DNA from: Azolla caroliniana
Lineage: Eukaryota; Plantae; Polypodiophyta
DNA: 64,000 bases
NCBI GenBank assembly: GCA_043228905.1
Contig: JBHGNT010000016.1
Span: 9,114,001 to 9,178,000 of the forward strand
Direction of reading: 5' to 3'
The notes under the pieces were generated by a model. The model worked only from the letters and a program-made list of their open reading frames with translations. It did no database searches and was not told the DNA's origin. Made by a program: the position numbers and the translations under genes. This document shows, piece by piece, positions 15,413 to 60,110 of this stretch. How positions within the stretch are numbered: position 1 is the first letter of the stretch; each line of letters opens with the position of its first letter.

Positions 15413-15430
15413 TGGTGAACCCGACGTGAA
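15413..15430 (+). promoter_or_regulatory. Primer binding site, tRNA-Trp
   Basis: TGGTGAACCCGACGTGAA matches the complement of the plant tRNA-Trp 3' end (recalled, not searched); identical 18-mer on the minus strand at 58840-58857. Confidence 0.85.
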
Positions 15431-15446
15431 GACGGGTGGCAAGGAG

Positions 15447-17228: not shown

Positions 17229-18075
17229 ATAGTAGAAAATATTAAAATTTATATAACATGCATAGGGCAAGATTCGAACCTTGCACCTCCATGTTAATAA
17301 TGTAATGTCTTACCATTACACTAGCATTTCATTTGTGTTTAAAAATAGATGTTCCACATAGAAAGCTTAGTTCACCTAGGATAAACTTTAGTTAAAAGAA
17401 AACGCATGCTAAAAGAAAAAGCTACACATGCACATCTAGCGTGCATGAACGCTATAGTTGATAAAAAAAAACGCACAAGTTAGAAAAAGCATGATCACTT
17501 TAGATAAAGCATATAGTCTATCTATAGGAAAAGCATGGGGTCTATAGTTAGAGAAAAAGCATGGATTACTAAGACTTCCTCATCACTACATAAGGATGGG
17601 AAGCACAATGTAATTGTGTGTGAAAAATATTTGGAAATTGGATATATTTCCTAAAACACCAATTAATAAACTATACTCGTGGGATTCACGAGATTTCTAT
17701 ATCTTTCTCTATCAATCTAAATACATATTCTTACATAAATATTAATCAATAAAATACATTATACTTGTGGGATTCACAAGTTTCTAATAATCTATCCATT
17801 ACTAGCCTCATCTCATATTCTTCTTTCTCCTAGTCCAAAACCCCAGTGGTTCCCACCCGACTCACGCAAACGATCCGGAGTCGAAAGGCACGACACCGGT
17901 CCAAGATCTTTCATGGCAAATGATTTGCCTAGTGCTTTCTTCAAGCTCACGATCCTCTTTGTGTCTTGTCCGAATATCAACATGTCATCCACATATAATA
18001 AGAGAATCAAGAAGTCACCTTCATTGTACCTTTTCACAAATACATAGTGGTATGCCTGTGTTTTGTGGAACCCGT

Positions 18076-26500: not shown

Positions 26501-27225
26501 CCTTGACACTCACTCCCAAAATTATTCCTTATGAGGAATATCTCTTTAACGGCCTTTCGGTTTACGCACCAATACGGCCTCTTGTTACGCACCGGTTTGC
26601 GTACTGGTTTACGCATCCGTTTTACACACCAGTCCGGCCTAACCGATCGGTCCCAACCAATCCGGTTCTCGGCTTGCACAGCCGATCCGGCTAATGTTGA
26701 GCTTGTATCTCAACAAAGAAGAACCGTTCAAGCCCTTGGATTAGAGTATACTGGACATGGTCGATGAAGACTAAAGGAGCTAACCCATGGGTTCGACGTG
26801 CAATACATTGTCCCACGGGCGTGCCATGTGTTGGCCAAGAAGTATGTTCCGGACAAGTAATATGGACGGGGATGAGTCGGAGTATAATAATATAATTAGT
26901 AGCATAATTATTAGTTAAGTAATATTATAGGAACGGACGGATCCGGATAGTTGTACCGATCTGAATCCGCACCGATTGATAGTCGGTAGGTGTTTCTGTT
27001 CTTAATTGTTATACCTCGTTTACTTGCCGTTCGGTGCTTAAACTCTTAATCTTATGCGTGTTATAATTAATCGATTGTGTAATAAATAATCCGGAAGACA
27101 TCCGGGAATAGTCGGATCGGAATCGGATAAAAACCGAATAGCATCCATATCCTAACCACCCCTTTGGAGAAGTGTTTCGGAACGGATACCCTGTGTTTGT
27201 GGCTAAGTCCAGCCCAGGAAAAACA
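23581..27225 (+). mobile_element. Athila/Tat-like Gypsy, 3' part: degenerate coiled-coil extra ORF and 3' LTR (26829-27225)
   Basis: E/K/Q-rich ORF fragments homologous to the reverse complement of 43650-46188; LTR TGTTGGCC..AAACA. Confidence 0.72.
24024..24672 (-). mobile_element. Copia solo LTR, 649 bp
   Basis: TGTTG..CCCAACA; end GGAGGGACATATT as in LTR 6756-7440; TSD CAATG / CATTG. Confidence 0.85.
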
Positions 27226-34367: not shown

Positions 34368-37300
34368 TGTTGGGAAATCGGTCCCTCTAGATGGGATCCG
34401 ACTGTGAATGAAGAGATCCAGAAACCGGACCGGATGGACCTGGTGAGAATCGGAAGAGAAGACAGATTTATAAATATGTCTTGAGTAAGCCTATTGAGGC
34501 TACATTTGTAAATAGCCCTAAGTTCATATAGGTATAAATATGACTTAGGGCAATCACTTTATGTGAAAGTGAGAGTTGTATATTATAGCTGTTCATATCG
34601 TTGTAACTGCTGTACAGAGATAGATAGAGAGGGAGAGAGTGTGAGATACAAAGCGATACTCTGTTATAACCGCCGGTTGGCGAAGATATAGAGCTCGAGG
34701 TCGTTGCCTCTGAGGCTCTAATTGTACCTTTCTCCTATAGTGATAGTTGGAGTCTATAAGCTCCCGTGGTTTTTCCCATTTAGGGTTTTCCATGTAAACA
34801 TCCTATGTATTTCCTTTGTGTACTCTCCACTTCCCATTTCTGTGTTCTCCATTCTCATCGAAGTGATTCAAGACTCGGTTGTGGCTGAGCAATATTCCGC
34901 GTGATTCTCTTCAAACTGGTATCAAAGCGAACAACACAGGAACTGGAAGAATTGTTCGGCGGCATATTTAAGCTCACCGGCTCCAACTACTCAGTGTGGA
35001 AGTCGAAGATGAGGGATATGATGGTGGTTAAAGATCTTTGGTTGCCGGTCGATGCCACAATGTGGGAGGTGATGCACATGAAGACTACGACAGACATCTG
35101 GTGATTCATCAACATGAGCCTATACAACAACTTCAATGAAGAGAGCAAGGCTCATGAACTCTGGGAGAAGATCGACATCATGTTCCAGAACAAGAATGTC
35201 GTTAATCAGGTTTCGGTATTTTGGAAGCTAGTGAGACTTTGGTACCAGGAGGGCTCCAGTATGGCGGAGCACATGAATGCCTTCCAGGGGCTGATACATC
35301 AAGCAACCTCATTGGAAGTACCTCTCGCCGATGAGGTACTCGTATTGCTCCTACTCGATTCCCTCCTAGATAGCTGGGAGACGTTAGTTGTCACGTTGGG
35401 CAACACCGAGCCGGGAGGAAAGCAGTTATCCCTAGCAAGGGTAATATCAAGCTTGCTAGATGAAGAAGCTCGCCGGAAGGACCAGGAGTCCGGAACCGAT
35501 CCGAAGGCCTTGGTCACAGAAGATGACCACAACCAGGGAAGAGGCCGGTATCGGAGTCCCCAAAACCGGGACAAATCGAGGACGAGGTCGAAGTCAAGGG
35601 GGACCACGTGCTTCTATTGCGGGAAGCTGGGACACTTCCAAAAGAACTGTCGGCATTTCTGGAAGGAGAAAGGAGACTCACCTCAAAAAGTATGGACCAG
35701 TAAAGAAGTATCTTACCGGCATCCGAAGGTGTTCGGGTGTCTCGCATATGTGCATGTTGCAAAGGACAAGAGAGCAAAGCTAGATCCAAAGTCCATGCCA
35801 TGCATATTCCTTAGATACGGCAATGATGAGTTCGGTTACCGGGTGTGGGATCTGGTCGGCAAGAAGGTGTTCTGGAGTCGGGACATAGTCTTCATGGAAG
35901 ACAGGACCATGGCTGACTGGAAGTCGGAGAAGAAGATGATCAACTCCGGATCATCCAATGAAAATCGGCCTGAGGACACAAGGACCTACTCGGTTGAGAA
36001 CCGGATGTTAGATGGTAAATGGATGACACTTGATTAACCGGCCGGATACGGACAGGAATCCGAAACGACCGAAGAAGAAGACAAAGAAGAAGAAGAAGAC
36101 ACCAGAATCAAACAAGATTTCGAGACGGAGGAACTGGTAGTTAGAAACCAGGGACGGAGATATCCTCTCCGGGAGAGAAGAGCCCCCCGGAAATTTCCGG
36201 ATACAGAGCATGTGTTGCTAACCGATGAGGGGGAGCTGGAAAGCTTCGAAGAAGCAAAGAGAGACACACACAGCTGCAAGTGGTTGAGTGTCATGCAAGA
36301 TGAGATGGATTCCCTGCATGAGAACCACACATATGAATTGGTGGAGTTACCGAAAGGAAAGAGGGCACTCCGGAACAAGTGGGTGTACAAGCTGAAATCG
36401 GGAGACGCTGGAAATCCACCAAGGTATAAGGTCCGAATCATGGCGAAGGGCTTCCAACAGAAGAAAGGAGTGGACTTCAATGAGATCTTTCCCCCGGTAG
36501 TAAAGATGGCATCCATCCAGACGGTATTGGGCATAGCGGCAAGCATGGACCTCGAGGTAGAGCAACTGGACATCAAGACGGCATTCCTACATGGCAACCT
36601 CGAAGAAGAGATCTACATGCATCAACCAGAAGGATTTGAGAAGAAAGGGAAGGAGCACATGGTGTGTCGGCTGAAGAAGAACCTATACGGACTGAAGCAA
36701 GCTCCCCGGCAATGGTATCGGAAGTTCGAATCCTTCATGACCGACCAAGAGTACCACAAAACACAAGCCGATCACTATGTGTTTGTGACGAAATTTGACG
36801 GAGGAGATTTCTTGATACTCCTATATGTGGATGATATGTTGATCGTCGGAAGAGACCAACTCAAGATACGGATGCTGACGAAGGCCCTGAATTGGACCTT
36901 CTCAATGAAAGACTTGGGAACAACAAGACAGATATTGGAAATGCACATCATCCGGGACCGATCGAAGAAGTTGTTGTGGTTGTCACAGGAGAAGTACGTG
37001 ACGAAGGTGCTTCAACGGTTCAACATGTCGGAGGCGAAGCTGGTCGGATCGACACTTCCGGCAAACTGCAAGCTGTCCATATGCCTCTGCCATCGGAAGC
37101 TTGATGTACGCGATGGTATGTACCCGACCGGATATCGGATATGCAGTCGGAGTGGTGAGCCAGTTCATGAGCAATCCTGGCAAAGAGCATTGGAATGCAG
37201 TCAAGTGGATACTCCAATACTTGAAAGTTACCTCGAGTATGTGCCTCCGGTTCGGCTCCGATAATCCCCAACTTGACAGATTCATGGATTTGGATATGTC

Positions 37301-38282
37301 GGCTGATGCGGATACTAGCCAGTGTACATCCAGATATGTCATGACTTATGCAGGGGGAGCTGTATCATGGCAGTTGAGGCTGCAGAAGATGGTTGCGTTG
37401 TCAACCATGGAGGCGCGCGTACATGGCAGTTGTAGAAGCCGGCAAGGAGATAATTTGGATCAAGGACTTCATCGGAGAGCTAGGGATCCAACAGGAGGAA
37501 TACCAGCTCTACTGCAACATTCAAAGTGCCATCCACCTTGCAAAGAATGCGACCTACCATTCCCGGACGAACAATATCCAACGGAGGTACCACTGGATTT
37601 GGGAGAGAGTAGAAGATCAAGAGTTCATGCTGACAAAGATCTACATGGAGGATAACGGGTCGAATATGCTGATCAAGGTGTTAACGACCGACAAGCTGGA
37701 CGCGTGATGAAAGCGAATGAGGCTGATAAGACATCCCATGCCGGAGTAAAGTGGTACATTGCTGGGAAATCGGTCCCTCCGGATAGGATCCGGCTGTGAA
37801 TGAAGAGATCCAGAAACCGGATCGGATGGACCCGGTGAGAACCGGAAGAGAAGATAGATTTGTAAATATGTCTTGAGTAAGCCTATTAAGGCTACATTTG
37901 TAAGTAGCCCTAAGTTCATGTAAGTATAAATATGAAAGTGAGAGTTGTATGTTGTAGTTGTTCATATCGTTGTAACTGTTGTACAGAGATAGATAGAGAG
38001 GGAGAGAGTGTGAGATATAGAGCGATATTATGTTGTAACCGCCGGTTGGTGAAGATACAGAGCTCAAGGTCGTTGCCTCCGAGGCTCTAATTGTACCTTT
38101 CTCCTATAGTGATAGTTGGAGTTCGTGGGCTCCCGTGGTTTTTCCCATTTACGGTTTTCCCCGTAAACATCTTGTGTATTTCCTTTGTGTACTCTCCACT
38201 TCCCATTTCTGTGTTCTCCATTCTCATCGAAGTGATTCAAGACTCGGTTGTGGCCGAACAATATTCCGTGTGATTCTCTTCA
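34368..38282 (+). mobile_element. Two-LTR Copia (Tnt1/Tork-like) lacking PR and integrase core
   Basis: LTRs 34368-34913 and 37760-38282; PBS TGGTATCAAAGC at 34917-34928; gag zinc knuckle CFYCGKLGHFQKNC fused in frame to post-INT VFGCLAYVHV; RT 36212-37080; RNase H to 37707. Confidence 0.92.
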
Positions 38283-39764
38283 AACGGTCAGATCGTAGAT
38301 CAAGGTATGTAGGTCCGGTTCACTCACCATGGATGCTTCATCGAGGAGGAAGGCCGAATCATTGCGCAAGGGCGCCGGGATGGAAGAATGTTCATCCTCG
38401 AAACTAATGATGTTGGCACCGCTATGTTTGCAAAAGGACAAAAGGTCAAGTTGCATATCGACCTCTGGCATAAGTGAATCAACCACATCAACTTTCGCAA
38501 GCTTTAGGAGTTACAGTCAGAACACATTGTTTTCGGACTGCCGAAGTTCACTGGCCGGAAAGGCCAAATATGTGAAGCTTGCCAACTCGGGAAGCAACAC
38601 AGGCTTCCATTCCCCAACGAGATGAATCAGAACTGGAATCGGCTTGATCTTATACATTCGAATGTGTGGGGACCGGCACAAAACGTGAGCATTGGCAGGA
38701 GTCAGTATTTTGTCTCCTTCATCGACGATTTCAGTCTCCACGCTTGGATCTATCTGATCGAGAAGAAGAGCGAAGTCCTCTCTTTCTTCCGGGACCTAAA
38801 GAATCATGTAGAGCGAGAAACCGGAAGGAAGATTAAGTGTTTGAGATCGGATGGCGGGAGAGAGTACTTTCCGGCCAGTTCACTAGTTTCTGTAGACCAA
38901 TGGAATTCGCCGAGAGTTCTCCTGCAGATACACGCCGGAGTAGAACGGCGTGGTTGAACGTCGGAATCAGACGTTGCTAGAAGTGGCGAGGGCAATGCTG
39001 GAGCAGAAGAGCATGCCCCGGATTTAGTGGGCTGAAGCAATTCAAACCACCGTTTACATACAAAATCGGATATATGCGTCAGGGAGAAAGGTGTCGCTAC
39101 ACGAATTGTATTTTGAGTTTAAGCCGAATTTGGCTCACCTTCGGGTATTCGGCAGCATTGCATATGTGCATGTGCCGGAGGAAAAGTGAAGGAAACTAGA
39201 TGCAAAATCCGAGAAGTGCATCATGGTTGGCTACTCCAACGAACAGACGGGGTATAAGTGCTACAACCCCCGTTTGAAGCAAGTCCGAGTTAGCCGTGAT
39301 GTTTTCTTCGACGAATCAGCATCTTGGTACCTCGCATCACCCAAACCTGAGCCGATTGCTATGAATGAGGCGACAAACTCTGGCACAGAGGAAAGCGTTG
39401 CGGAATCTAAACGACGGGATAGTCTCACTTCCCTCCGGATCAGTGAAACGAATCTGGATTGGTAGAGTTGGAGCGGTCAACTAGATGACAAGCTGGCGAG
39501 TAGCGAAGACTCAATCGTGCTCTCCCTGCGGAAGGAACCAAGGAGATGGTTCACACGCAAAGAGAATGGGAAGCAAAAGATGCTGGAATATGACAACGGT
39601 AGGGAGGAGTCGAATTGGAGCGAATCCGACTCCGGAAAGCAAGAAGACGGATCTCTGGAGAAGAGGTCGGAGTCAGCCAAGAGGGCCATCAAATCGGCAG
39701 AGCAGAAATTGCGCTGATCTATCCGCCAAAAGCACCCCATAGTTTGATACAGATATAACGAGTA

Positions 39765-43136: not shown

Positions 43137-46100
43137 TGTCACCGGCTGGACAAGCCACTAACAGAGGGTGTCCCTTTAGAACACTTCACCAAAGGGGTGG
43201 TATGGTAAGGAATGTGCAGACCGCGATACAGGACCGATCCTTCCCGGAGCGCTCCAGAATGATTAACTTGATACACGCATATGATAATCACAGTAAGTGC
43301 AGAATGGTAGTAACAAGATACACAATATGTAAAGACACAACACTTCTCTATTCATTATCCATTGTCAATTACATCATCTCCGGATCCTTTTATAGGTATT
43401 TGGTTGTGCTACAAACCGGTGCCAACCGGCAATTGGCTACGAACCGGTCCAGATCCAGTTCGGCATACTGATTCCAGGTCTGTCTGTCCGATCTTATAAT
43501 TATCATAACGATCTTATAATTATCATAATTTCTCTAATTACAACTCCCAAAACCGGCTCCCTTTTCATACTCTAGCCTAACCGGCCAACAAATGGCACAC
43601 CCGTGGGACAATACATTGTACGTCGAACCCATGGTTAGCCCCTTCATTCATCCTCCAAAATGTCCAAAATGCTTTGGTCTAGGGGCTCCAACGGTTCATC
43701 GGATAGTTGCTCCATCGGCTACTGTTGTTGCTCCTCCGGTTGTAGTTGCTGTTGTTGTTGTTGTTGGTCTTCGGCCTACTCTTCCTCTCTAGCTCTATCC
43801 GTATCCGGCTCTACTGGTCCCGACGCTCCTGACTCCACCTCCTCCGTCCTTGGCTCCTCTTGCTGCTACACTGGGGCTTTGTCTGCCTCCTCCGATTTGA
43901 CTTCTTTTAGCTGTTCCACTTGGTCTTCGTTTGGTTGGCCTCCTCCGGTCGCGGCTACATTCGGTGGCTGCTCTGGAGATTGCTCTCCATCACTGATGTT
44001 AATTGCCGCCGACATTTGCGATGCTATCTATTGTCTTCGCTCTCGTTCGTATCGCTCAAGCTGAAGTTGAGTGCCAAACTGGTCATCTTCTAGCTGTTCT
44101 ACCAACTGCCTAACAGTTGCCAATTGTTCCCCTGCTAGGGACAAGAAATCGTTCGACAACTCCTCCTAGATGGTTACAATACTCTCCGCATCCATCTTGT
44201 AGATGTTGTCACCATTCTTTCTCCAGTTTTCCGCATCCGCTCGCAATGTCTGTAATTCCACTACCTGTTGTGCCCATTTTGAACACCATTGCACTGAGCT
44301 TTCACCAATCATACTCTTTGTTCGTTCTTTCCATCCTAGCACAATGGCGCGGATCTGGTTGAGCCCCATCTTGGATTTGTCCTCCACAGCCTACTTTTCC
44401 TCCTTTAACTTCTTTATCAAGCCCGTGGTTGCTTGTGCTTGCACCTCATATTCCAGGATTTTAGTTTGATAAGTGGTTTGAACTCTGTTCGGTCCCTTGC
44501 TGCTTCTTCCAGTGCCTTTGCGATGTCGACTGCCTTGGTCCATTCTTTTGCCAATGCCTCCGTCACCCTGTTGACTTCCTTTCGGAGTTCCCCTAGCTTC
44601 TCCTACTGTCGGTCACCTTCTGCCATCAACTTCTTGTGCTCCGTATCCAAATACTTGTGATCCTAGTGCAGTTGTTCAAAATCCTTCATCTTCTGCTTCA
44701 GCTTTTACTTTATTTGGCGTCTTCCCCATCTTTCTGCTGTTAGAGTTCTTCCTTGAGCCGCTCGATTTCGGTCTCCACCGATCGCCGGAGCTTATCCTTC
44801 CCTTGTAGCAGCTTCTCCTTTTCTTCCTTCAACCGGTCATTTACTTGGTAGCTTTTCCGGAGATTTTCTTCGAGTCTTCGTTTCTCACCCTCAGCTGCCT
44901 TCTTCTGCTCTCATTCTCTAGCCCGCAAGGCCTCCTGGGCTTCTAACTCTTCCGTGAGAGTGGAGAGTTCTTGCTCCCATGTGATGCTTGTGTCCGGTGT
45001 TGTAGGAGCTAGCGGCGGGTTATCTGTCTACTCAATCACCGACGCCACCGGTTCTGGGCCTATTGGCCCCTGATTGACATGTCTGGCCGTGTCTGCTTTG
45101 GCCTTCTCAATTTCTTCCTCCATGCTCCGGATCCTTGACTGGGCCTTCTCGAGTGCTTTGGTTGTGGTGAACAACCGATCCCGTTGTGCTCTCTCTCCCG
45201 CTTCAATTTGGCTTACAACCCCGACCACCTGCTCTCCGATCCATCGAAGCCATTGACTGTCGGTACTTTGTTGCCTTGCCAGTTCCAGTGTTGGCTCTGC
45301 TCTCGCCACCACCCCTGGTTGGATTGTTGTTTCTAGCGGCAACTCCTCTTCTTGTTGTGCCTGCTGACCCGATGAGATTGGTACTTCTCTTGCCATTACT
45401 GGTTGATCCAGCTCGGTTTCCTTCATTGGCTCTGGTTCCTCGAAGTGGGGTGTCGGTGTGCTGTCTTTTACCGGTCCCAATTTGTTCCCCTTTGGCTCTG
45501 TGTCGCTTCTCTTCTGACAACGTAGGGGAGTGTCAGCGTTTTCTTCCTCTGCCTCCTCCTCTTGCGTTCTCATGTTTATCCCTTGAGCCAAGTTAGGCGG
45601 CTCTTGCTCTTGCCTACGCAATTCGATTTTGAGAGGCCTAACCGGTTGTGCTACCGGTGCCTCTGTCTTCGTAGGCCTCTTCCGACTGGGTTGCTCCTTT
45701 CCTTTCTGTGATGAGCCTCCCTCTGTCCAACCGAGCGCGTGCTTGGAAAGGAGTAGTTTCTGCTTTGATGGCTTGTTTGGCGTCGTATCGGCCTTTCAGA
45801 CCCGTAGCTTTGCCCTTTAATGTCAGCACTGGCGGTACAAGGAGAGTGAGACATTGAGCCACTGTTGTTTGTCCACACCTTCTTGCTGTCTACCACCGAT
45901 TGTATGGCCGCTCACAAACAATCAGTGATGATTACGGGTCAATCCACCTTTACCCCTTTCTATGTTGCGATGATGAAACCAACTTTGTTCTTTGGCATTG
46001 TCGGGAGTCGGGGGTGCACAAACCCATACTCGTGGAGCCCCTGAGCTACTTCTCGGAACAAGGCATCGTTGCCGCCCTGTGTCCGGTACGCTTTGCTGGC

Positions 46101-49100
46101 CAGGGAATACTCCCCGAAGAAATTCGTCAGCGTCTCTGGGGACTCTCAATGGAGTAGGTCCCTCCTTCTGGCAATCCGATGAAAGCGCTGTCGTGAAGAT
46201 TTTTGGCAATGGTGTGAAAATCAAATAAAACTACAAAAAGATGGAGGTCTTCAAGAGCTTTCAAATGTGCTTTACCACATAAAAAACGGACATCTAAGTG
46301 ACAAGTTATGTGGGAGTGAAGTATGAGAAGGAAGAAGAGAAAAATAAAACTGTGAGATATCCCACGTAGACAGGAAATAAGGATCTCACCATATATAAGG
46401 TAGAACAAAAGCTTTTATCTTTGTGTCTATGTGTGGAGCATAGAGATTTAAAGGTGACTTGAACTAAGCTATTGGATGAATGGGTGTGGCCTGACTACTT
46501 GCGAAGGTTTTGCCCAAGCAAAACCGGACCGGCAACGTAACCGGAACCCGGACCCAGTGACCGAACGGTAACCGGCGAACCGGCGTCATCTGGCGGCATC
46601 CAACATCCGACGTCATCTGGCATCCGGCGACCGGATAGATATATAAATAAATAAATAAATATATGTATACACATATATATATACACAAAGAGTGCAAGTG
46701 TAGATTTGAACCTTGCACCTCCAAGTTCAGAGTCTATAGGCTTACCACTAAGCCAAGACATTTTCTTGAAATAATATTTTTATCATTGTAACTTTAAATG
46801 TAAATTCTCATACATGAGAGCTAAAATGAGTGACGTGGTTATCATGCACCACATGTAATACATGAGTGCCAAATGGCAAACATGCATTTTATGCATGTCT
46901 TGAACCCTCAAATGCATGAGGGCATCTATAAAAGAGGGGATGAAAAAGATCAAAAGGGGGAATTTTTGTAATGTAAATTTTTTGGAACCTTTGTACTTGA
47001 TATTAAAATTAAAATTAAAAGTAAGAAATTCATTATCCAGTTGATGATATATCTTGTCTCTCAAAAACTCTCTTTTTCAATCTATCTTAAATCCTTTCTC
47101 GCTAACTCTAGCGCCAACTTCGAGTCCTTCTGGTCCAGAACCCCGGCGGTGCCACCTCACGATCCGCGCATAGTGACGTATCTTCACGACAACACGGATA
47201 GCATCCTCCATGATTACTTCTAGGTCGATCTTTTTCGCGACCTTTTCTGCTTCTTCGTGCGGAGATGCCTCTGCTGTCCATAAGAAACCCTCCAAGCCAT
47301 GTTTGTGAACCATTTCTTGGCCGTCGCGGAAAGCGCCATGGGCTCCAGCGTGTCCTCTGTTGCGGTGGTGGTGGAGAGCTTTGGTGTGCCTGTGGTGGCT
47401 TCTGGTGTTTTCCTAATCACCTATATCCGCCTCTGTGTGCTAAGTGCTCTATGTTCGCGAAATGAGAGAGACTCTGTTATGCGAAGGTTTTGTGTTCCCA
47501 TTCTTGCCGCGTTTTCTCGAGTCCCGCACCGTTCTTACGAAGGTTTTGTGTTCCCATTCTTGCACGTCGTGTCTTTTAATAGTGGTTGTGTGCCGCATGG
47601 TGGGCTTTAAATGCCTTACGTCACACCGTTTCAAGGCGCCCGTTCATTTTTTTAATGGCCTACATTTTATTTAATTTTTCCGCTTGCATGGTGGCTTTAC
47701 TCCTCGCCCTTGCATGATGTTTTTTTCTTTTTCTTTTTCGTGCGTGGTATTCTAAACCCTTGTATCCAGCAACACTGGATCCGTTGTATGTTCCTCCTCC
47801 TGGTTGCCGGTTATCTGCTTGCCGTTCCCGGTTCCTGTTTCGGCATCCGGTTGTCTAAATGGGTTCCGCGGCATTAGTCCGTAATACGCGTTCCTAGCTT
47901 ATACGAGCCGTTAAACTCTCGTGTTATCCAGTAAGGTCCAGTCCACCAAAACCGTAGCTCTCCCGGCATTTTGCCCATCCGGGTCTGAAATACTAACACC
48001 GTCTTGCCGATTCCGAACCTTTTCTCATTCCCTTTCCGGTGCCGGTCAACGAATGCTTTCCGTCATCGTTGCTCGAGTTCCAACTGCAAAATGCTAGCTT
48101 TCCGGTGTTCTTCTAATTCGCACAATGTCGTTAATCGAATTTTCTCCTATTCCTTCTCACTTAACTTTTCCCGTACTTGAATCCGCAAACTCGGAATTTG
48201 AAACTCTATCGGCATGACCGCTTCTAATTCGAAAGCTAAATGGAATGGTGTTGTCTGAATACTTGTTTTGTAGGCGGTTCGGTAACCCCACAACACAAGG
48301 TTTTGTTGGTGGATTCGGCCAATCCGTTGGCTTGTGGATAGTAAGGTGTACTTTGCTTGTGTACGACCGCATAAAATGTCATCAAGCTCTCTACTACTTG
48401 ACCGAGGAAATGTCCTCCTTGATCACTGATCAGTTCTATTGGGCATCCATACCGGCACCAAATGCACTCGTATAGGAACTTGGTCGTTGAGGCCGCGGTA
48501 TTATCCCGGAGTGCCTTTGCTTCCACCCATTTGGCGCAGTAGTCTGTTGCTACAATGATATACCGGTTCCTAGTCCGCATTGCCGGAGGTTTGAATGGTC
48601 CGACGAAGTCCAATTCCCATTTTTGAAACGACTCCAGTGGTAACACCGGCTGGTGTGGCATCCTTGCTTGTTCCGTTGGTTGGCCCATCCGTTGACATAA
48701 GTCGCATTCCTTTGCATACCAAATCGAGTCCTTCATTGTTGTAGGCCACCACAATCCACTTCGCCATATCTTCTTTGTTGTTGCTTCTCCGGCATAATGT
48801 CCTCCGGTGACTCCACAATGAGCTTCCCGTAAAATTGTCTCCTTTTCATCGCTCTAAACCGCTCTTCGCCATATACCGTCCGCTCCCTTGTGGTACAACG
48901 TATCCTTCAGTAAATAAAAATGTCAGCTTTGTACCACCAACCACGTCCGTTTGTCCCGGTTTAGTTCTTCCGGAGTCAATCCGGTGCTTAAAAATTGATG
49001 CATATTCGTCAGCCATTTATCTTGCTCGGCCACCATCCCGTCCACTGTATTCTTCGCTATTACCCTGAATAGTTGCGCATCCGGAAGGTCGTCTTTGACG

Positions 49101-51720
49101 CTGTTGCCAGCCTCTCCGGATTCTGACCGGCTCAAATAATCCGCGACCGCATGTTGTACTCCCAATCTCTGGTAAATCTCGAATTCGAACTACTGTAGAA
49201 CCAGCGTCCATCGTGCTAGCTTGCCGGTTAGCGATGCCTTGGCAACCAAGTAAAGTAAAGCTGAATGATCTACGTGGAATGAGAATTTCCATCCTAGCAA
49301 ATAGTGACGGAACTTTGTTACGTTGTATATCATTCCCAAGGCTTCCCTTGGGAGAGCTTCCGATTGGCGTGGTAAACCGGCTGGTACCACTTTGGTTCGG
49401 TGAGCTGCATAAGAATGTTGCCGATCGCGATATCCAATGCATCCACAAACAAATGAAATTCCTTTGACCAATCCGGGGGTTGTACGACCGGTGCTTAAGA
49501 CAACATTATTTTGAGCGCATTGTATGCCTTATCCTCCGGTTCTGTCCATTGGAAAGGTGTCGGTGTACAACTGCGTGTAGTGGTGTCACAAGATCGGCCA
49601 AGTATCGGAGCATCCGGCTATGCCAACGGATTTGCCCTAAAAACCGGCTTAGAGCTTTGGCGGTTGTTGGTGCCAGTGCTTTCAGCAATCCCATCCTTAC
49701 TCACAATATAGCCTAGTAGTGTGCCGTTGGTTACCCCGAATACGCATTTCGCCAGGTTCAAACTTCGCCGGTAACCTCTGCATTTCTCCAGGTATAACCA
49801 GAGATGGTCAAGATGTTCTCCTTTCCTGCTGCACACCGCAAAGTCATCCAAGAACAGTTGCATAAACGCTGGGATAAATTCCCCAAAAATTTCCATGATG
49901 ATTCGTTGGAACGTTGCCGGTGCCATGTTTAGTCCAAACATCGTCAAGAACCGCTACAAAGACACCCCATTCGGTGACGAATGTTGTTTTCTCCTGATCA
50001 TCCGGGTGCATCCTGATTTGGTTATACCCACTAAATCCTTCGAGGAAGCTATACACCTCGTGGCCTGCTACTACATCCAAGACTCCATCCGTGAATGGGA
50101 GTGGGAATGCATCAGTGACAGTGGTAGCATTCAATTTCCGGTAATCTACACAGACTCGGATCTTTCCGTTTTTCTTCGGTACCACCACGATCGGGCTTAG
50201 CCAGGTGGCTTTCTTCACCGGCCGGATGAACCCAATCCGCAGCAACTTATGAATCTCTTCTTTTACTTTAGCAACGTAATTCGGATTCATCCGGTAACAT
50301 CTCTGCGCTACCGGCTACCGGTAACTGAATCTGGTGTTGATATAATTGCGGGTCCCGTTCCTGCATGTCTTCATATGACCACGCAAATACGTCCATGAAT
50401 TCTTTCAATAATGTGATCATTGCCGATTTCTCCTCCCGTGGCATTTCCTTGGCCACCTGCACCGATCTTGCCTCTTCGTTGGTTCCCAAATTCACTTCTT
50501 CCAATTGTGATGCTTTCACCCATTCTGATACCACCATCTCCCGCTCTAGGGCCTCTTGTGCTTGTCGTAGTTCCCAGATCGCGTCCCTATCCGGTTCCTC
50601 ACCGGCATCCTCCGGTTGCCCAATATATGGGGACACCGCCTCTGCTACGTCTACTTCGAACAGAGGGACTATCCCTGGGTTTTCATCAAGGTAGCAATCT
50701 ACCTCCTCATCGGCAAGCCCTTCCAGCATATTCACGCTTTCGGCATATAACAATGTTACTTCCTTGCCTGGGCCCGCTTGAGGGTGCGTGGGTACTCTGA
50801 CCTTAGTTTTCCCACTTTGAAACGTAATGTTGTTCTTTTGCCAGTTCTGTTTGATGTGGGCGGTCTGTAACGATGGTCATCCCAACAATAGTGGGTATGC
50901 TCCCTACGCATAAAACTGGAAGACGATGGCAGAAATCCAGAATGCATGGCCTCAGATTATTACCTCCAAATCCCGGATCAATCTAGCCGATCATACTGAG
51001 TTGGTGTCTGCCATCCGGAGCCAAAACGGGCATGGTTCCCATTCTTGGATTCCAAGAGTGTTGCATGTTCGGAGGCTAATTACGTTTACTCCCGACCCGC
51101 CATTGATGATAATGGTGGTGATTGCGGGACTGCTGGTATCGACCACGGCCGGCCCTTCCTCCGGATTTGAAAAGAACATCGGAGCTGATGTGGGGTTTGG
51201 TGGGGCCCATGCTGATTTTAACCCATCGGTGAATCAGGGCACCAATTGGAGTAACCGACCCAATGGTAGCATGATCTGGCATTCTTGTAATGCCCACCAG
51301 TGGGGTTATCCTATTGCGTCATCTCTGTAGGTTCCTCCAATGCGTTCCTTTGCTCCTTCAGTTCAGTAACATTCTGTTCTTTTGCTTTTCAGATCCACTT
51401 CATAGTTTGTTTGTAGATAGCTTCCTAAGCTTCCCATTCAAACATCTTTCCCTTCGATTTAGTGGTGACTTGCTGGATGTCCGCCACTTCCGCAACCACC
51501 ATGTTGACTGCCGGTCATTTGTCGTGACTCTTTACTAGACATTGGTTGCTGTAGTGTCCCTCCTGGCGGCAATAGTAGCAATACGCCTTCCATGTATTGC
51601 TAGACTTTGCTTTTTGCATGTTACCTAGTTGAAATCCGGATTCCAGCCGGTTAGGCTCCTCTACTCTTCTTTGTTCCGTTTGAGCACTAGTTATGCTTCG
51701 GTCCAGCTCTCATTGGTAAA
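43137..51720 (-). mobile_element. Athila/Tat-like (non-chromovirus) Gypsy: gag end, PR, RT, RNase H, partial INT, extra coiled-coil ORF, 3' LTR
   Basis: Zinc knuckle CYYCRQEGHYSNQC near 51540-51585; RT WLSPIVVVPKKNGKIRVCVDYRKLN..FLDDF; INT KWELDFVGP..YYPQANGLAE; E/Q-rich ORF pieces 43650-47420; LTR 43137-43590 with minus-strand TATAAAAGG. Confidence 0.85.
46189..47191 (+). mobile_element. Solo LTR, about 1 kb, TGTCGTGAAG clade
   Basis: TGTCGTGAAGAT..ATCTTCACGACA; homologous to the reverse complement of 58866-60044; flanks GCGC / ACAC. Confidence 0.9.
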
Positions 51721-53404
51721 TGTTACCGGCTGGCAAGAAGGCTTAAGGAGGTCCAAATCAGAGTGTGAAAAGGAATAGTTTATTTGGGAACTGTTGTAAT
51801 TAGTAATCTTAAAATATATAGTAATATATGAGAAGATGTGGACGGACGGACCGGAATCGGTATGCCGATCCGGATCCGGAACGATCCCATAAAGGTGTCG
51901 GTTGGCACCGTTTTGTATTTCGCACCGGAGACCTATATAAAGGCCCGGTTACAATGTAATAAGGAGCGGATAATTAATAGAGCTTATTGTCTTAATCTCC
52001 CAGTGTTGATTACCCGTTCTGTATACATTGTTATATCTTATGTGTGTTAATTATGGATTTCTAAGTAACCAATTAAGGTCTAATTAAGCGTTGTGCTGTA
52101 AGTCATTCTGCCAGACGGCCCAGTTACGGAGAGAGCACGAAGACTTGCTGAACGGAGAAGGCGGCAAGAGGCTTTCCAACAAGCAGCGGAAGAAATCCGA
52201 ACGGATCAATCATTTTCCAAAGTGATCCGAAAAGTGGTGGAGTCGCTCCGTCTGCAAAAAAACGCCTACTCGGACGAAGGAAGCAGCTTAAGCAGCCTCC
52301 GGGAAGTGGAAACCCTTCTCCTGGCCTTGGCCGGAAGAGACGGCGAATCCGAAGCATTTTCAGCGCTGGAATCGGATTCGGAAGGGGGTTACCGCGCGCA
52401 CACGAACTATCGCAGCAGTAAGGACACCCCAGGAGGACCGGAGGACGAGGAGTCGGATACATTACCGACACCGGAACCAGAGTTGGCAGACCGGGAACCT
52501 CCAAATGTAATAAGCCTCCGGGCGTGCGATGCTCTTGGAATCCAAGAGTGGGAGCCATGTCCGTTCTGGCTCCGAATGGAGGACACAAGCTCAGTGCGAC
52601 CGACTGGATTAATACGGGACTTAGAAGTAACCATCGAGGGCCACACATTTTGAATCTCAACCGTAGTTCTCCAGTTGCAGGCTTCAAGGAGCGTACCCAT
52701 TATTGTTGGGACACCCTTGGTTAAAGACGGCACACATCAAGCTGAACTGGAGGAGGAATATGATTACGTTCTGGCGGGGAAAAGGGAAGGTACGGGTACC
52801 AACACAACCAAGGAAGGGCACCGGCAAGGATCTGACACCGTTATATGCAGAGTGCATCAATATGCTGGAAGGATTAGCAGACAAAGAAGACGATCAGTAC
52901 TTGTAGGAGAACCCGAAGATTGTACCCCTATTCGAAATTGACGTCGCCGAAGCGGTATCACCCTACTTATTGCAACCGGACGGAACCGAAGCGGAACTGG
53001 ATAAAGAAGCAATCTGGGAGTTACGGCAGGCGCAGGAGGCGTTCGAAAGAGAAATGGCCGTATCACAACGCGTAAAAGCGTCTCAATTAGAAGAGCTAAT
53101 ACTAGGAACGGCGGAGGAGGCAAAACCGGTGCACATCGCCAAAGAAATGAATGTAGAGAACAAAACGGCGATAATCACATTCAACGAGTTTCGCGACGTA
53201 TTTGCCTGGTCTTACGAAGATATGAGAGGGCTGGATCCTCAGTTGTATCAGCACCAGATACATTTGAGCAAAGACACCAAGCCGGTAGCACAACGTCGGC
53301 ACCGGATGAAGCCAAACTACGCCGCCAAAGTCAAGGAGGAAATCGACAAAATGCTGAGGGTTGGCTTCATCCGTCCCGTAAAGAAAGCTACCTGGCTCAG
53401 CCCG
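51721..53404 (+). mobile_element. Second Athila/Tat-like copy, 5' part with deletions (LTR about 51721-52127, gag piece, PR, RT start)
   Basis: 52500-53404 is closely homologous to the reverse complement of 50190-51090 (WEPCPFWLRM, NYAAKVKEEIDK); the LTR shares GGTTGGCACCG..CCTATA with 43137-43590. Confidence 0.82.
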
Positions 53405-54918
53405 ATCGATGCCGCCGGATGCTGTCGGTTACCGGTGCCTCGCCGGATGCCGTCGTCTCACCGGCGCCGGATACCGGTGCCGCCGCCGGATGCCGGATTG
53501 CCGTCGGATGCCGCCGGATCACCGGCTCCATCGCCGGTCCGGTTTTGGTTGGCCAAAACCCTTTACGAGTAGCTAGCCCACCTCCACTCTAGTTCAAGTT
53601 ACCTTGAACTCTCTATGCTCCACACATAGACACAAATATAATATCTTTTGCTCTACCTTATATATGATGAGAGCCGTATTTGTCGTGCCTATGTGGGATA
53701 TCTCACAATTTTCTCTTTTCCTTTTACAAACTTTATACCCTCATATCTTGACATTTAGTTGTTCGTTTCTCGTGTAATAAAGTGCATTCGAAACCTCCAT
53801 CATTTTGTACTTAGATATTAAATTTATTTAAAATGTTATCTTCACAATTATTGTATTATGTGATTCATACTCGATTTCGTACGTTTTATGTGATTTTCAC
53901 ACTATTGCCGAAAATCTTCACGACATCCACCCCCATCAAACCGCACGTCCACTGGTACGTGCCAAGAAGAGAGAAGGTGAGATTTCGGCTACGATGATCA
54001 ATTAGATTCCTCCAGGTCAACTTTTACATCCGCCCTATTATGTTCATCGTCCAGGTAATCGAGGTCAGGATCCTTGTCTTGTCTTTTCTTGAAAATCTTT
54101 ACTCTTTTTCCCGCAATGGGTACGACTAACCTTGATCCGTCTAGTTCCGCAAGGTGGTATGTGGCATTATCGTTGGCACTTGTCACCACATACGGCCCGA
54201 ACCATCCTCTTGCGAATTTCCTTGTTGTACTGTGTTGATTGTCAAGGGTGCTATCGTAAACCAAAACCCAATCCCCTTCTTCAATCTTATTGGGACGAAG
54301 TCGATGCGTGTTGTCGAACCGAACCTTGTTCTTTACTCAGGCTGCCTTTATCATCTTTCGCGCTTTTTCTAATTTCTTTCGGATTCGTAGGGCCTCCTCC
54401 TTTGTCAACGAAGCATCTGTCGTCAATGTTCTTAGGAATCTACCGATGAGTAACCACTCTCCTTCGTACTCGTTCTCGTTGAAGGCGTGGAGGGTTTGCG
54501 TGTCCTGGTCTTCTGCCGACAATTGAGCCATCTTGAAGAAGTCGAGGGAGACATCTTCATCTTCCGAAACCATGTTACTTCCATTTGAAAATCTTGCCCT
54601 CGACAGCATGTCAGCCATGGCGTTCTTCTTCCCTGCAATGTGACGGATCTCTGGGTTTAAAGACTTGATGTAGGTGATCCACCTTAGCATAGCAAGATCT
54701 GGGGTCGCACATCCCGAGACCATTCCGAGAATTGGGAGACAATCTGTCTCTATTATCACTTCGGACCCGATCAGGTAATCTTTGTCCATCTTCACTGCCG
54801 ACACAATACCCCAGAGTTCCCGCTTGACTTGGGCATATCTTTGTTGCCGTTCGCTGAGAACCTTTGCTCCGAACCGGATGGCATATCGCGCATTATCTTC
54901 ACCTTCTTGATTGATGAC

Positions 54919-56538
54919 TCACCCGATTCCGGTTGGGCTCGTATCTACGGTCACGTAAATTTGTTTCCCTTCGGCATAGTCGGCCTTCCTTAGTGCCAGA
55001 GCTTCAAGAAGCAGTTTCTTTAATCTTTGCATCGCCTTTGTGTGCTCGTCTCGCCATTCGAACTTTATTCTTTTCTTTAGTAGTCCATATAACGGTTTGG
55101 TGACATGAGCGTAGTGAGGAATCCATATATGATAAAATGCGCACGCTCCAAGGAACCTTCGAACCTCCGTTTGGTTTTCGCATTCTTCTTTCATGTCTTG
55201 GATTGTGTTCACTTTGGATGGCGAGGGCTTCTGGCCGTATGCTCCACACAAGTGACCTACCACCAAGATCTCCGGTTGCCCGAATGCGGATTTTTCTCCC
55301 GAAAATGTCAAATTCGCATCTTCGAGCCTTTGAAGCACCTTCTCGCAATCTTTCATATGATCCGCAACGAACTTTCTACAACCTTCCTTATTTTTCGATT
55401 CATCTTTCTCCTCATCCAAACATCCTTTTATCGGAATATCATCCAAGAATGACATCGTGATGTCCGGAATGCAATCCTTCAAGACTTTATTCATGGCATT
55501 CACCATATGAGCCACCGAGTTCGTTGCGCCTTGGGGCAAGGTACACATCCGCACAAGCCCGATCGGAGTCCTCATGGTTGTAATGTCCCGACTCTCGATC
55601 GCCAATTGGAATTGGTCATATCCGGAGTAGAGATCGCCAATGGAGTAGATGGACCGGCCCGCAAACGCTTCGGCAAATTCGTCCACGCTCGGACCGATTC
55701 CGGCATTTCGAATTGTCACCTTGTTGACGGGTTGAAGATCTTGGATGAATCGCAATGATCCATTCTTCTTCGGCACCGTTAACCACCTATTGGAATAAGG
55801 AGCATTTGACGGTTCTAGAATTCCCATACTCACCTTCTCCTTTAAGAGCTCGATTAGCTTTGGAAGGTGAGCTCTCAGAACCGGTATCGGTTTCAAATTC
55901 CAAGGCACATGAGGTACCGTGAAGATCACCATCGGCTCTATAACCTTTGGGTCGGCGCATCCGATTTCTCGTGGGAAGAATGCGAAAGCCTTCCCATGTC
56001 TCTCAAGCATATCGCGAAAAATTTGCTCCTCTTCAGGGAGAAGGAAATCCTCCTTTCCAACTTGTAGCTTCCCCTTCATCTCTTTGGTGAAGACATGACC
56101 TATCTTCTTTGGATCTCTTAAGCTTGGATCGTTAGCGACTTCCTTAAACTTTTGCCAGCTATCTTCCGGTAGCGGAACCGCAACTGGCTTGATCTTCTTA
56201 TCCACCATTTTATATTTGGTGTTGATGTCAGCTTCCTTCATCGAGATGCCACGACGGTATTCATCGATGATAGCGTACATGTTGACGGAGTTAACCGAAA
56301 TCATGCGTTGATTGTGAAGATAGCTCAAGTCCACGACGTCCTCGATTTCGTCGATGGTGTCGTTAAATGAGGCTTCTTTCATAATATGAGTCACGAACTC
56401 TCCTTCTTCTATTATGTTTTCTTCTTTCAGCATCTTCTCAAATTCTTGTATCCGGCGCTTGTGCTTCTTGTCGGGTAGTACTAGTTTACATGCGCCACTA
56501 GGTGTGACACATGTTGCTTCTCCTCGCAATCCACGCAC
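54919..56538 (-). pseudogene. pol: Gypsy reverse transcriptase, 539-codon open segment
   Basis: DLYSGYDQ, LPQGATNSV, FLDDIPIKG and VRRFLG motifs; stop and frameshifts elsewhere in pol. Confidence 0.92.
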
Positions 56539-57025
56539 TCTTCTTTCTCGTGGGGTCTTGTGATTGCTCGGACTATTTGTGCCCCATGCTTCAATAGTCC
56601 GCTCTAAAAATCCGAGGATTCGCCTCCGAGACTATCTCGATTCCTTTCATGATTGGCTCACACCGTTAGGAATTGGACCGATCTTTGGTTGTCAAGACTC
56701 TTTATTTGTGCAAAGGCTGCTCCATTATCGAACACTTTGGTCTCCATCCGAGATGATATGATATAAGGTTGCCCTAGGATGACAGGATGTGACGCCGATT
56801 CTTGTACGAAGAAGTGTTGATCCATCTCCACATCCCTGATCGTGACTTTGATATTGGGACAAGCTCCGTACAAGTCCTCCGTAGACTTTGTTGCTGCGCA
56901 AATCTTCCATCCGTGGTTTGTATTGATTGGCCATCTTCCCTTTTTGTAGAAGTCGGTTGACATGAGGTTGATCTCCAAGCCGTGGTCGATCAAGGCTACC
57001 ACGGTCTCTTTCTTCTCTCCAATCT

Positions 57026-58804
57026 TCACCGGTGTCTCCGTTGTCGCTCGTGCCCAATGAGGTCGAGTATAGTGGATTCCACCATATCTTCATCGACTTC
57101 GTCTCTTGCCATCGTTATGGCATTTGTTTTTGCTTTTTGCGGCTTCTCTTCTTCCTCGTTCGATTGTTGTCTCTTTCTCTTTACAAGGTCCACAATCGTG
57201 TCATGGAACTCCTTCGTAATGCCAAGCAATTCCCTCAAGGACAAAGTTATGTGGCTATCAAGAACTCGTTCTTCGAGAATATTCTTTAGGTCCGTTGTCT
57301 GCTCTATGTCCGACCTTAGCTTATAGGTAGGTATAGTCCTAGTCCTCCGAGCGGGCTCTTCGACACCAACCTTCACGGGCCGCACCGTTTCTTCAACTTG
57401 TATGCTCGGCTCCCCTTTTCGGCTTGATTCTCGTTCCTCCGATTGTAAAGGTCGACTCGTCTCCGCATCGTCCTTCTTTTTCGCGTTCCTTGTTTCATGT
57501 ATTTTAGATGGGCCTTGCTCTTCTATTCTCTTTCTCTTTTCTTCGACGAACACCTCGTGGTTGTCGCACATCACCTCTGCGAGTATGGTGTTGTCGTCCA
57601 TCGGATCCGACCACCCGGTTATGCTTTGCACGCTTCGGTCCGCAAGCTCTACCTCGTTCGATGTGACTTTTCCCTTCTTCTCATATTCGAGAACGGAAGT
57701 CCAAAACTTTGCTCCCGCTCTAGCAGCTTCAGTCTTGTCTTTCCCGACTCTTATTCCGGCCGATGCAGCATAGTGCATCGCATCCACATGAGTCGCATCG
57801 GCATCCTCCATAGATTTCTTCATTCCTCCTCTTCCAAAATTCACCCGTAGGGGTCTTCTAGTCTCGCTTGAGCAGATCATGTTGTCCTCTATGTATACGA
57901 TATTTTGTCGAATAGCCTCTCGAAGGCTCGCACAATCCCTTTTCATGTGCTCCATGCTATCGCACCACACGCATCTAAAGGGTTCTTTTCCTTTAGGCCC
58001 CCAACGATTCATGTTGGCTAGCGTGACCTTCTCGAACTTCTTCGCTAGCTCTTCAATGATGTCGTCATCAATCTTCTTTTCTTCCACGTTACTTTGTCTT
58101 GGCGGCTCAGCTACTTTCGGCGGTCTTGCTTTCTCCGTGGTAGTCGATCCCGTCAAGTCGGTGTCATCAACCCATTGGCGATGCTTGTCGAGCCTATTGC
58201 ATGCCCGCTTCACCGCGATCCAGTCCACTACGAGCCCATTTGCTTGGGTATCATCTTCGAGAAGAGTTCCCAACTCCCGTCTATCCTTTATGTCCACGGC
58301 CTTCAAGAAGTACAAAGTCTTGTCCTCTTCAAGCAACACTTGGTCCGTGTTGAGGAGACGACTAAACATCTGGTCGAATTCGTCGTACACCCTCGAGACG
58401 CTCATCTTCTTATTCTTCTTCTCTATCCACTTCATCAGGGCATGTCAAGTCATCCTCGTTGAGTCTTCAGTCACGAACTCCGCTAGTATCGTTTTCTCGA
58501 ACTCGGACCATGTTGTCTTACCTTCTTGAAGCTCGATGACACATCTTTGGATGTTGTTGGCGGCAACTCTCTTGAAGCTTGCGATTTGACGTGCCTCGGA
58601 CACGTCCCTCTGATTCATCTCCCTTCTATATGCATCAAGGAACTTCGTAACGTTCCTTCCATCGAATTGGCCCTCGAGCTCTACGACACGATCGACAGCC
58701 TTCTCCACGCTCGCGTCGTTGTCCCGAGATCTCATCATTTGCTCGACAATTAGCATCATCCTTTCGAGCTCTCCTGCTTGGTTGCTTGAGGACGCCATCT
58801 CCAA
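57026..58804 (-). pseudogene. gag: Gypsy gag, one stop and one frameshift
   Basis: CVWCDSMEHMKRDC knuckle; follows the PBS directly. Confidence 0.88.
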
Positions 58805-60110
58805 GTATTAATCTCGACTTGATCCTTCCTACCGCCTCTTTCACGTCGGGTTCACCACTTAATTATGTCGTGAAGATCCGTCACTACGCGCGGATCGTGA
58901 GGCGGAACCGCCGGGGTTCTGGACCGGAAGGATTCAAAGTCGGTACAAGCTTTGGCGCAAGCTTTAGCGAGAAAGTACTTAAGATAGATTGGGAAAGAGA
59001 GAAGTTGAGATTACACGATTGAGAGAGATTGATTGAACTTTTAACTTTAGATTTAACAAAATAAGTTACACGATCAATTTGATAACGAATTTCCTCTTCT
59101 TAATTTCATAACAAAAAAACCATGTTTTTTCTCCTCCCCCTTCCTTCTTTTATAGATGCTCTCATGCATATGATGCATGTGAGGGTACAAGACATGCATA
59201 AATTGCATGTTTGCCATTTGGCGCTTATGTATTACATGTGGTGCATGATAACCATGTCACTCAGTTTAGCTCTCATGTATGAGAATTTACATGTAAAAGT
59301 ACAGTGATAGAAATATAAATTCAACTAAATAGCATGGCTTAATGGTAAGCCAATTGACTCCGAACTTGGAGGTGCAAGGTTTGAATCCTTACTTGCCCTC
59401 CTTGTATATGTATATATATTTATATATTTATTTATCTAGTCGCCGGTTCGTCGGATGCCGTCGGTTGCCGTCGGATACCGGTGCCGCCGTCGGATGCCGT
59501 CAGTTACCGGTGCCTCGCCGGATGCCGTCGTCTCACCGGTGCTGCCGCCGGATGCCGTAGCCGGATTCCGTCGTCTCATCGGCGCTGGATACCGGTGCCG
59601 CTGCCGAATGCCGGATTGCCGTCGGATGCCGCCGGATCACCGGCTCCATCGCCGGTCCGGTTTTGGTTGGCCAAAACCCTTTACGAGTAGCTAGCCCACC
59701 TCCACTCTTAGTTCAAGTTACCTTGAACTCTCTATGCTCCACACATAGACACAAAGATAATATCTTTTGCTCTACCTTATATATGATGAGAGCCATATTT
59801 GTCGTGCCTATGTGGGATATCTCACAATTTTCTCTTTTTCTTTTACAAACTTTATACCCTCATATCTTGACATTTAGTTGTTCGTTTCTCGTGTAATAAA
59901 GTGCATTCGAAACCTCCATCATTTTGTACTTAGATATTAGATTTATTTAAAATTTTATCTTCACAATTATTGTATTATGTGATTCATACTCGATTTCGTA
60001 GATTTTATGGGATTTTCACACTATTGTCGAAAATCTTCACGACACCGTAAAGGTGCCGGTTGGCACCGTTTTGTATTTCGCACCGGAGACCTATATACAG
60101 GCCCGGTTAT

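Follow-up and report, generated by a model that had tools for sequence, protein, structure and literature searches.

A copy of a tRNA 3' end in the place of the polypurine tract: putative tRNA priming of both strands in an Athila-like retrotransposon lineage

Priming of the second DNA strand from a polypurine tract (PPT) is treated as general for LTR retrotransposons and retroviruses. Among the described systems closest to the elements reported here, the yeast retrotransposons Ty3 (PMC5371799) and Ty1 (PMC7969010) possess a primer binding site (PBS) that is bipartite but use a PPT for the plus strand, according to the available portions of these papers, and a PPT-primed plus strand is likewise described in the available portions of reports on Arabidopsis elements (PMC7197481) and on Retand (PMC11963269). 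For plant elements, the excerpts of Neumann et al. (2019; PMC6317226) give the Athila PBSs as complementary to tRNA-Asp for 72%, to tRNA-Asn for 12% and to tRNA-Ala for 4%, and make the aRH domain the defining character of Tat; the element table and the FASTA file of the same work may contain members of the lineage described below. A full-text literature search, in which subscription papers are thinly covered, returned no description of a tRNA-primed plus strand or of an LTR element devoid of a PPT.

The window, that is the whole 64-kb stretch of Azolla caroliniana DNA analysed here, is a nest of decayed insertions. Two of them, called copy 1 and copy 2 and both lacking their 5' LTR in these 64 kb, carry a tRNA-like site directly inside their 3' LTR. 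The features on which the argument rests are the following.

26787 to 26826, plus strand: tRNA-like site of copy 2, downstream of a same-strand remnant of the extra ORF.
26829 to 27225, plus strand: 3' LTR of copy 2, the end of which also continues with 5-6 nt and a short PBS in Logan contigs.
43137 to 43590, minus strand: 3' LTR of copy 1 (TGTT...AACA; TATA-like box near 43390), with an 82% match to locus L028 across site and LTR.
43591 to 43592, minus strand: 2-nt spacer of copy 1 between the CCA and the TG of the LTR; the TG lies at the same distance in 35 of 36 sites.
43593 to 43609, minus strand: the 3' T-stem strand, acceptor strand, discriminator and CCA of the tRNA, copied as positions 59-65 and 67-76 with base 66 absent, as read from the sequence.
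43610 to 43622, minus strand: 13-nt insert between tRNA positions 58 and 59, forming a 4-bp hairpin with a 3-nt loop, from pairing and covariation in 22 distinct sites.
43623 to 43632, minus strand: the 5' T-stem strand and the T-loop of the tRNA, copied as positions 49-58, from sequence comparison.
43900 (approximate) to 47522, minus strand: decayed extra ORF of copy 1, on the same strand as pol and split by a solo LTR.
46189 to 47191, no strand given: solo LTR of an unrelated Tcn1-like family inside the extra ORF, with no clean target-site duplication.
47889 to 51616, minus strand: copy 1 from the end of gag through the PR region, RT and RH to INT, in decayed form and collinear with aa 549-1837 of polyprotein P0123.
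51721 to 53407, plus strand: related LTR piece (TATA on the plus strand, 3' end lost), then a gag N-terminus and a PR-RT fragment; the polarity of the LTR is that of the coding sequence.

Other elements share the window. A Tcn1-like gypsy element (53432-60044, minus strand), whose LTR parts are 96% identical, contains GCCG-rich repeats and a DUF4100 domain; its purine tract is normal and a TGG-type PBS is lacking after its 5' LTR. Related to it in the window are an older copy, near 21000-24500, and the solo LTR at 46189-47191. At 15252-17228 (plus strand), an open frame of 658 aa with no Pfam match lies between 735-bp direct repeats (14675-15409 and 17162-17896) that are 99.7% identical, and this region is possibly a young non-autonomous LTR element. 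The LTRs of a copia element (34368-38285) are 88% identical and its PBS is of the tRNA-Met type; the stretch inspected upstream of its 3' LTR, which may be decayed, showed no clear purine tract.

The LTR of copy 1 runs from 43590 (TGTT) to 43137 (AACA) on the minus strand, with copia host DNA beyond it. The whole site that precedes it (43593-43632, minus strand) corresponds to tRNA positions 49-76, CCA included and base 66 omitted, split by the 13-nt insert, and its 3' part is a CCA-terminated segment of 17 nt (43609-43593, minus strand). With up to 2 substitutions allowed, this 17-nt core finds 2 matches in the window as against 1 in 200 shuffled windows. The longest purine run in the last 20 nt upstream of the LTR is 3, whereas the Tcn1-like element of the same window, which serves as a control, has a normal purine tract abutting its TG. 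Judged by its sequence, the site is a copy of a tRNA 3' end.

The occurrence of the site elsewhere was assessed by one metagenome scan with the site pattern. The scan gave 33 loci, 28 of which were of plant type and were kept; L007, L008, L016, L017 and L018, with a different spacing and no LTR start, were dropped as chance matches. A second scan allowing 2 substitutions gave 36 sites, both window sites included. The TG of the LTR, which lies outside the scan pattern, is found exactly 2 nt past the CCA in all but one of these 36 sites, across LTR families with differing starts, and the 2-nt spacer itself is variable (GG 23, TG 8, AG 2, and TA, CG, TT). In 36 of 36 sites the purine run in the last 20 nt does not exceed 3, and no PPT abuts the 3' LTR. 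An extra base at position 66, although permitted by the scan pattern, is present in 0 of the 28 plant-type loci; the tRNA-matching columns were mostly fixed by the pattern, so that their invariance is partly built in. The scan pattern had no match in viral contigs, and a shorter pattern had one prokaryotic match. In Logan contigs of three DNA runs, the depth at the site is the highest of 30 bins in X1 and X4 and the second-highest in X3, which means that the site is common to many families, the depth being no copy number. One locus (L009) shares a 97%-identical stretch with the window, so that the contigs are probably those of the same host, or of a close one, and do not represent independent taxa; metagenome contigs can collapse LTRs, and many are redundant assemblies of one family. 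As it appears from these alignments, the tRNA 3'-end site is a real, conserved and lineage-wide replacement of the PPT.

Five of the metagenome contigs (L003, L010, L011, L022 and L024) contain tandem units with a common LTR, or different families joined at the site or the LTR; these joined units may be real tandem arrays, recombinants or the result of assembly collapse.

The meaning of the site depends on which LTR it precedes. The related polyprotein P0123 (1901 aa; 87% identity in INT) aligns collinearly with the minus strand from 51616 to 47889 (aa 549-1837), and at 48296 the alignment jumps from aa 1680 to aa 1702, which corresponds to a 21-aa deletion within the integrase. The extra ORF comes next on that strand; the solo LTR splits it, but its L027 counterpart aligns in order to either side of the break (aa 88-159 and 173-265). 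Gag or pol of the lineage is present in only two of the 28 plant-type loci (L005 and L027), and in neither is the polarity opposite: L005 has pol, the tail of the extra ORF, a decayed site and the LTR on one strand, most of pol being deleted, and L027 reads site, LTR, short PBS and gag, the latter identified by a Retrotrans_gag match (E 1.9e-5) and 47-50% identity to P0123. Since pol and the extra ORF are collinear on the same strand and no locus shows the opposite polarity, the LTR at 43137-43590 is the 3' LTR and the site occupies the place of the PPT. The preliminary description had argued as much from the minus-strand orientation of pol, extra ORF and TATA box, and its reading of a T-arm, acceptor strand and CCA interrupted by a 13-nt insert and a 1-nt gap agrees with the sequence, the gap being the missing base 66. 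It had also taken the junction at about 48290 for a deletion across which the linkage had to be inferred; because the 21 missing residues lie inside INT, 48290 is not an element junction, the idea of a chimera at that point is rejected and the weak point disappears.

This bears on the suspicion that the association is an artefact of nesting, in which an unrelated plus-strand LTR with its PBS would have landed beside a minus-strand pol. The surroundings lend themselves to it, with a decayed nest, no 5' LTR in either copy and a solo LTR without clean target-site duplication in the extra ORF. However, INT, extra ORF, site and LTR are collinear in copy 1, the same order recurs in copy 2, L003, L005, L020 and L028, and PBS and site are found at opposite ends of single contigs, so that this explanation is largely refuted already and its probability is close to nil. 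Among the sequences read, no autonomous copy is complete at both ends.

In L027 (positions 19-924, minus strand) the extra ORF and its upstream region are antisense to gag and to the site, unlike the sense extra ORF of the window (43900-47522), L003, L020, L028 and L030; the L027 arrangement is an inverted cassette or a rearranged copy.

The other LTR junction was read in the relatives. In one family that gave no gag-pol hits, nine contigs (L002, L003, L011, L012, L022, L024, L029, L031 and L033; hereafter the L002 family) carry TGGCACGCCC 2 nt after the AAACA end of the LTR, a PBS of 10 nt that fits the same tRNA end. Seven of the nine each span the PBS, the internal region and the 3' site; some contigs of the family are collapsed circles (L002). 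The 5' LTR of L031, which has host flank, is 85.6% like the 3' LTR of that contig, and in L012 host DNA follows the 3' LTR; both have paired LTRs, one LTR of each being cut short, and no target-site duplication is legible. In L027 and L030 a decayed version of this PBS lies behind a 5-nt spacer. For the LTR family of the window, the evidence comes from loose contig ends in four Logan runs (three samples) aligned to the LTR end of copy 2: among the rows listed, which mix PBS and host flanks and whose majority lines agree at 0.39-0.94, the AACA end of the LTR is separated by 5-6 nt from a TGG-type PBS, which reads TGGCGACCAC where the rows are clearest. In 58 viral loci, 38 tRNA genes end in the complement of this sequence; most of them are for Arg, with Asp, Trp and others besides. 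Each LTR junction is thus a tRNA site that faces inward, and the element runs from the 5' LTR and the short PBS through gag-pol and the extra ORF to the long tRNA copy, 2 nt and the 3' LTR.

Three further observations concern these junctions. The 5' spacer measures 5-6 nt in the window family, L027 and L030 and 2 nt in the L002 family, the 3' spacer being always 2 nt. L033 is a non-autonomous element with both tRNA sites in which two pieces captured from host genes, one of DUF3474 (desaturase N-terminal-like) and one of LRR type, lie at 1353-1853 and 3484-3957 (minus strand); its contig coverage of 36 suggests many copies. At window positions 27150-27224, three runs have a contig with a tandem duplication of the LTR end, joined by 28 other letters.

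The 5' junction weighs upon the view, also raised in the preliminary description, that the coding region is inverted relative to the replication signals. In its simple form this view falls because no antisense purine tract abuts the 5' LTR, the signal found there being a sense PBS. A more elaborate form would make the long site the true PBS of an antisense genomic RNA, gag-pol being expressed from the other strand. Compared with the 10-nt 5' site, the long site is indeed more like a full-length PBS with an additional T-arm box, L027 has its extra ORF antisense to gag, and bipartite PBSs are documented for Ty1 and Ty3 in the available portions of PMC5371799 and PMC7969010. Nevertheless, the purine tract that such a genome would need at the other LTR is replaced by a sense PBS, and the TATA-like box of the LTR, gag and pol are all on one strand; we consider this form improbable, and it would still need two tRNA primers because of that sense PBS.

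The comparison of the two junctions also bears on whether the site is a primer at all. In the L002 family its last 10 nt are the exact complement of the 5' PBS, and it could therefore pair with that PBS and circularise the RNA, much as the 5'-3' cyclisation sequences that the available part of PMC7969010 attributes to Ty1, or it could act as a tRNA-fragment decoy, the plus strands starting imprecisely or at an unseen signal. In the LTR family of the window, however, the 5' PBS fits a different tRNA end, and only its first 4 nt are common with the complement of the site; moreover, the fixed 2-nt distance to the LTR and the absence of a PPT are left unexplained. A non-primer role is accordingly very unlikely in our estimation, and the two LTR junctions of the window family likely use different tRNAs.

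The tRNA that was copied can be approached through viral genes. A phage tRNA-Arg(TCT) gene (locus L036) reads at positions 49-76 as the site does, save for the insert and base 66; copy 2 differs from this tRNA at position 49 only and copy 1 at positions 49 and 70. A phage tRNA-Glu (L035) has a 3' end similar to the site. The GTGGG strand opens the T-arm in 30 of 30 viral loci retrieved with an Arg(TCT) anticodon-arm pattern, which fixed part of that strand. Natural tRNA-Arg ends fit the tRNA sites, and so do some ends of tRNA-Glu, Asp and Trp, the genes compared being viral. The host partner, which we take to be tRNA-Arg(UCU), is consistent with L036. ARAGORN detected no tRNA in the 64-kb window and none in the 33 metagenome loci, Rfam gave only a chance match on the site (E 4.3), and the literature search found no printed plant tRNA-Arg sequence matching the motif.

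The structure of the site distinguishes its two components. In 22 distinct sites, 94% of the cells of the 4-bp insert hairpin are paired and both-sided changes occur at three of its four pairs; the covariation score of the whole structure is 0.224, which 0 of 500 shuffles reached in a control that ignores relatedness. As aligned, the tRNA-matching part keeps its sequence and the insert keeps its structure alone. The closing pair of the hairpin is G-U in 6 of the 22 sites and A-C in none, and U-G is frequent in the outer helix. These pairs are possible in RNA and not in minus-strand DNA, and favour a fold of the element's own sense RNA; they may also be explained by C-to-T decay and by the T-rich upstream region.

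Such a fold is central to the most serious competing explanation, which we hold to be possible but rather doubtful. According to it, the primer would be self-encoded: the element's own RNA would survive RNase H, refold into a T-arm-like structure with a 10-nt tail on the cDNA, be cut after the CCA and be extended because it mimics the tRNA-PBS initiation complex, the site being a structural replacement of the PPT. Besides the G-U and U-G pairs, which suit the sense strand, the sense RNA of the window family is predicted to be able to lengthen the T-stem to a helix of up to 9 bp, and the prediction for the tRNA at the short 5' PBS is a T-arm that stays folded, the tail alone being paired, which is the shape that such a mimic would copy. 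On the other hand, pair 49-65 is broken in 12 of the 22 sites and the T-stem is missing from the predicted sense fold in 8 of the 22. The element's own RNA would pair with the cDNA whatever its sequence, so that the exact CCA and acceptor identity need a separate explanation, and a precise cut would be required ahead of a variable 2-nt spacer.

The model that we favour, with moderate confidence, is that a host tRNA anneals to the minus-strand cDNA and primes the plus strand; its priming steps are those that we infer from the anatomy. The synthesis of the minus strand would begin as usual, a tRNA priming at the 10-nt 5' PBS. The clearance of the RNA by RNase H would then expose, on the minus-strand cDNA, the complement of the long site, with which mature tRNA-Arg would pair over about 27 nt, its base 66 forming a bulge and the hairpin of the template a loop at the border of positions 58 and 59. 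The 3'-OH of the CCA, located exactly at the position of the PPT end, would start the plus-strand strong-stop DNA, after which the primer would be removed by RNase H and the 2-nt spacer trimmed by the integrase. Since the site would pass on through the RNA rather than be copied from the tRNA, the missing base and the insert would persist. The predicted pairing of the template with the 3' part of the L036 tRNA extends over 26-27 nt, base 66 forming a bulge and the insert a loop; its energy is -45 to -57 kcal/mol, as compared with -12 to -17 when the template folds on itself (RNA parameters, which overstate the values for RNA/DNA). The modified base m1A58 blocks pairing, and the insert falls at the 58/59 border. 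The four catalytic positions of the P0123 RNase H read D-E-D-D by eye; a tRNA paired with DNA is itself a substrate of RNase H, which counts against priming by a host tRNA.

On balance, we lean towards a wider picture of a high-copy Athila-like lineage of seed-free plants that would have abandoned the PPT and in which host tRNAs would prime both strands, by means of two different tRNAs in the family of the window and of a three-way junction on the minus-strand DNA, the non-autonomous members keeping both sites together with captured host gene fragments. If so, a tRNA or its mimic allows a reverse transcriptase working on a DNA template to fix the left end of the cDNA, and these elements offer a test system for the choice and the removal of plus-strand primers by RNase H. 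Annotation tools that expect a PPT, or that take the strand from the best PBS, may miss or invert such elements. In that case tRNA fragments could, moreover, target them on both strands.

The position of the lineage follows from its coding capacity. RT, RH and INT come after gag and the PR region, the LTRs are of the TG...CA type, and a PBS follows the 5' LTR, directly in the relatives and through the loose contig ends in the LTR family of the window, all of which is proper to Ty3/gypsy. P0123, P0128 and P0134 contain RT, one RH and INT, with gag in P0123 and P0128. The aRH profiles PF00075 and PF13456 are absent from these three polyproteins and both present in the Andrographis control P0175, and the polyproteins of the lineage gave no chromodomain hit. 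An extra ORF after pol, spanning about 3.6 kb and with no Pfam match in the pieces scanned, combines with the lack of aRH and chromodomain as in OTA/Athila, and the element resembles an Athila-like Ty3/gypsy by these sequence characters. Of the initial Athila/Tat-like assignment, the Athila-like part therefore stands, while the Tat part is abandoned because the close full-length polyproteins have no aRH. Membership in Phygy/Selgy, which are short, have no extra ORF, use a tRNA-Trp or tRNA-Ala PBS and make a 4-bp target-site duplication, is rejected in view of the presence of the extra ORF. The 5' PBSs fit Arg-type ends best among the natural viral tRNAs compared, from which the host set may differ. 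Relatives of the INT that bear a name belong to Adiantum, a fern (45-67%), to Riccia, a liverwort (47-55%), and to Tanacetum (41-46%); in a quick tree of 48 rows, drawn without REXdb references and leaving out hits with <150 aligned residues, the INT of the window sits in a starred group of environmental proteins, apart from the Tanacetum elements.

Compared with known systems, the lineage shares with canonical Ty3/gypsy elements, as they are generally outlined, the common TG...CA LTRs, the tRNA PBS after the 5' LTR and the gag-PR-RT-RH-INT order, but the RNase H-resistant purine tract that primes their plus strand gives way here to the copy of a tRNA 3' end. It is like the Athila/OTA non-chromoviruses in its single RH, its lack of aRH and chromodomain and its long 3' region with an extra ORF; however, the Athila PBS is mostly of the tRNA-Asp type and here apparently Arg-type, and the Athila description in the excerpts of PMC6317226 includes no 3' tRNA site. 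With Tat/Ogre/Retand, where according to the excerpts of PMC6317226 and PMC11963269 a tRNA-Arg PBS is common (tRNA-Arg or tRNA-Lys in Ogre, Retand and TatIII), it shares extra ORFs between pol and the 3' LTR and perhaps the Arg type of PBS, but the aRH and the ordinary PPT reported for that group are both lacking here. Self-priming in Tf1, Tcn1 and TAR (PMC6317226, same excerpts) is a precedent for an element-encoded RNA primer, although these elements self-prime their minus strand from the 5' end of the RNA and the Tcn1-like element of the window has a purine tract. A likeness in pairing exists with Ty1 (PBS, BOX0 and BOX1) and Ty3 (5' PBS and a U3 segment), in whose published outlines acceptor and T-arm are likewise paired and the template is looped out between the boxes. 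In Ty1 and Ty3, however, the sites complement the tRNA on the genomic RNA and prime the minus strand; in the present lineage the long site is tRNA-sense on the RNA, and for that reason a tRNA could bind it on the minus-strand DNA only.
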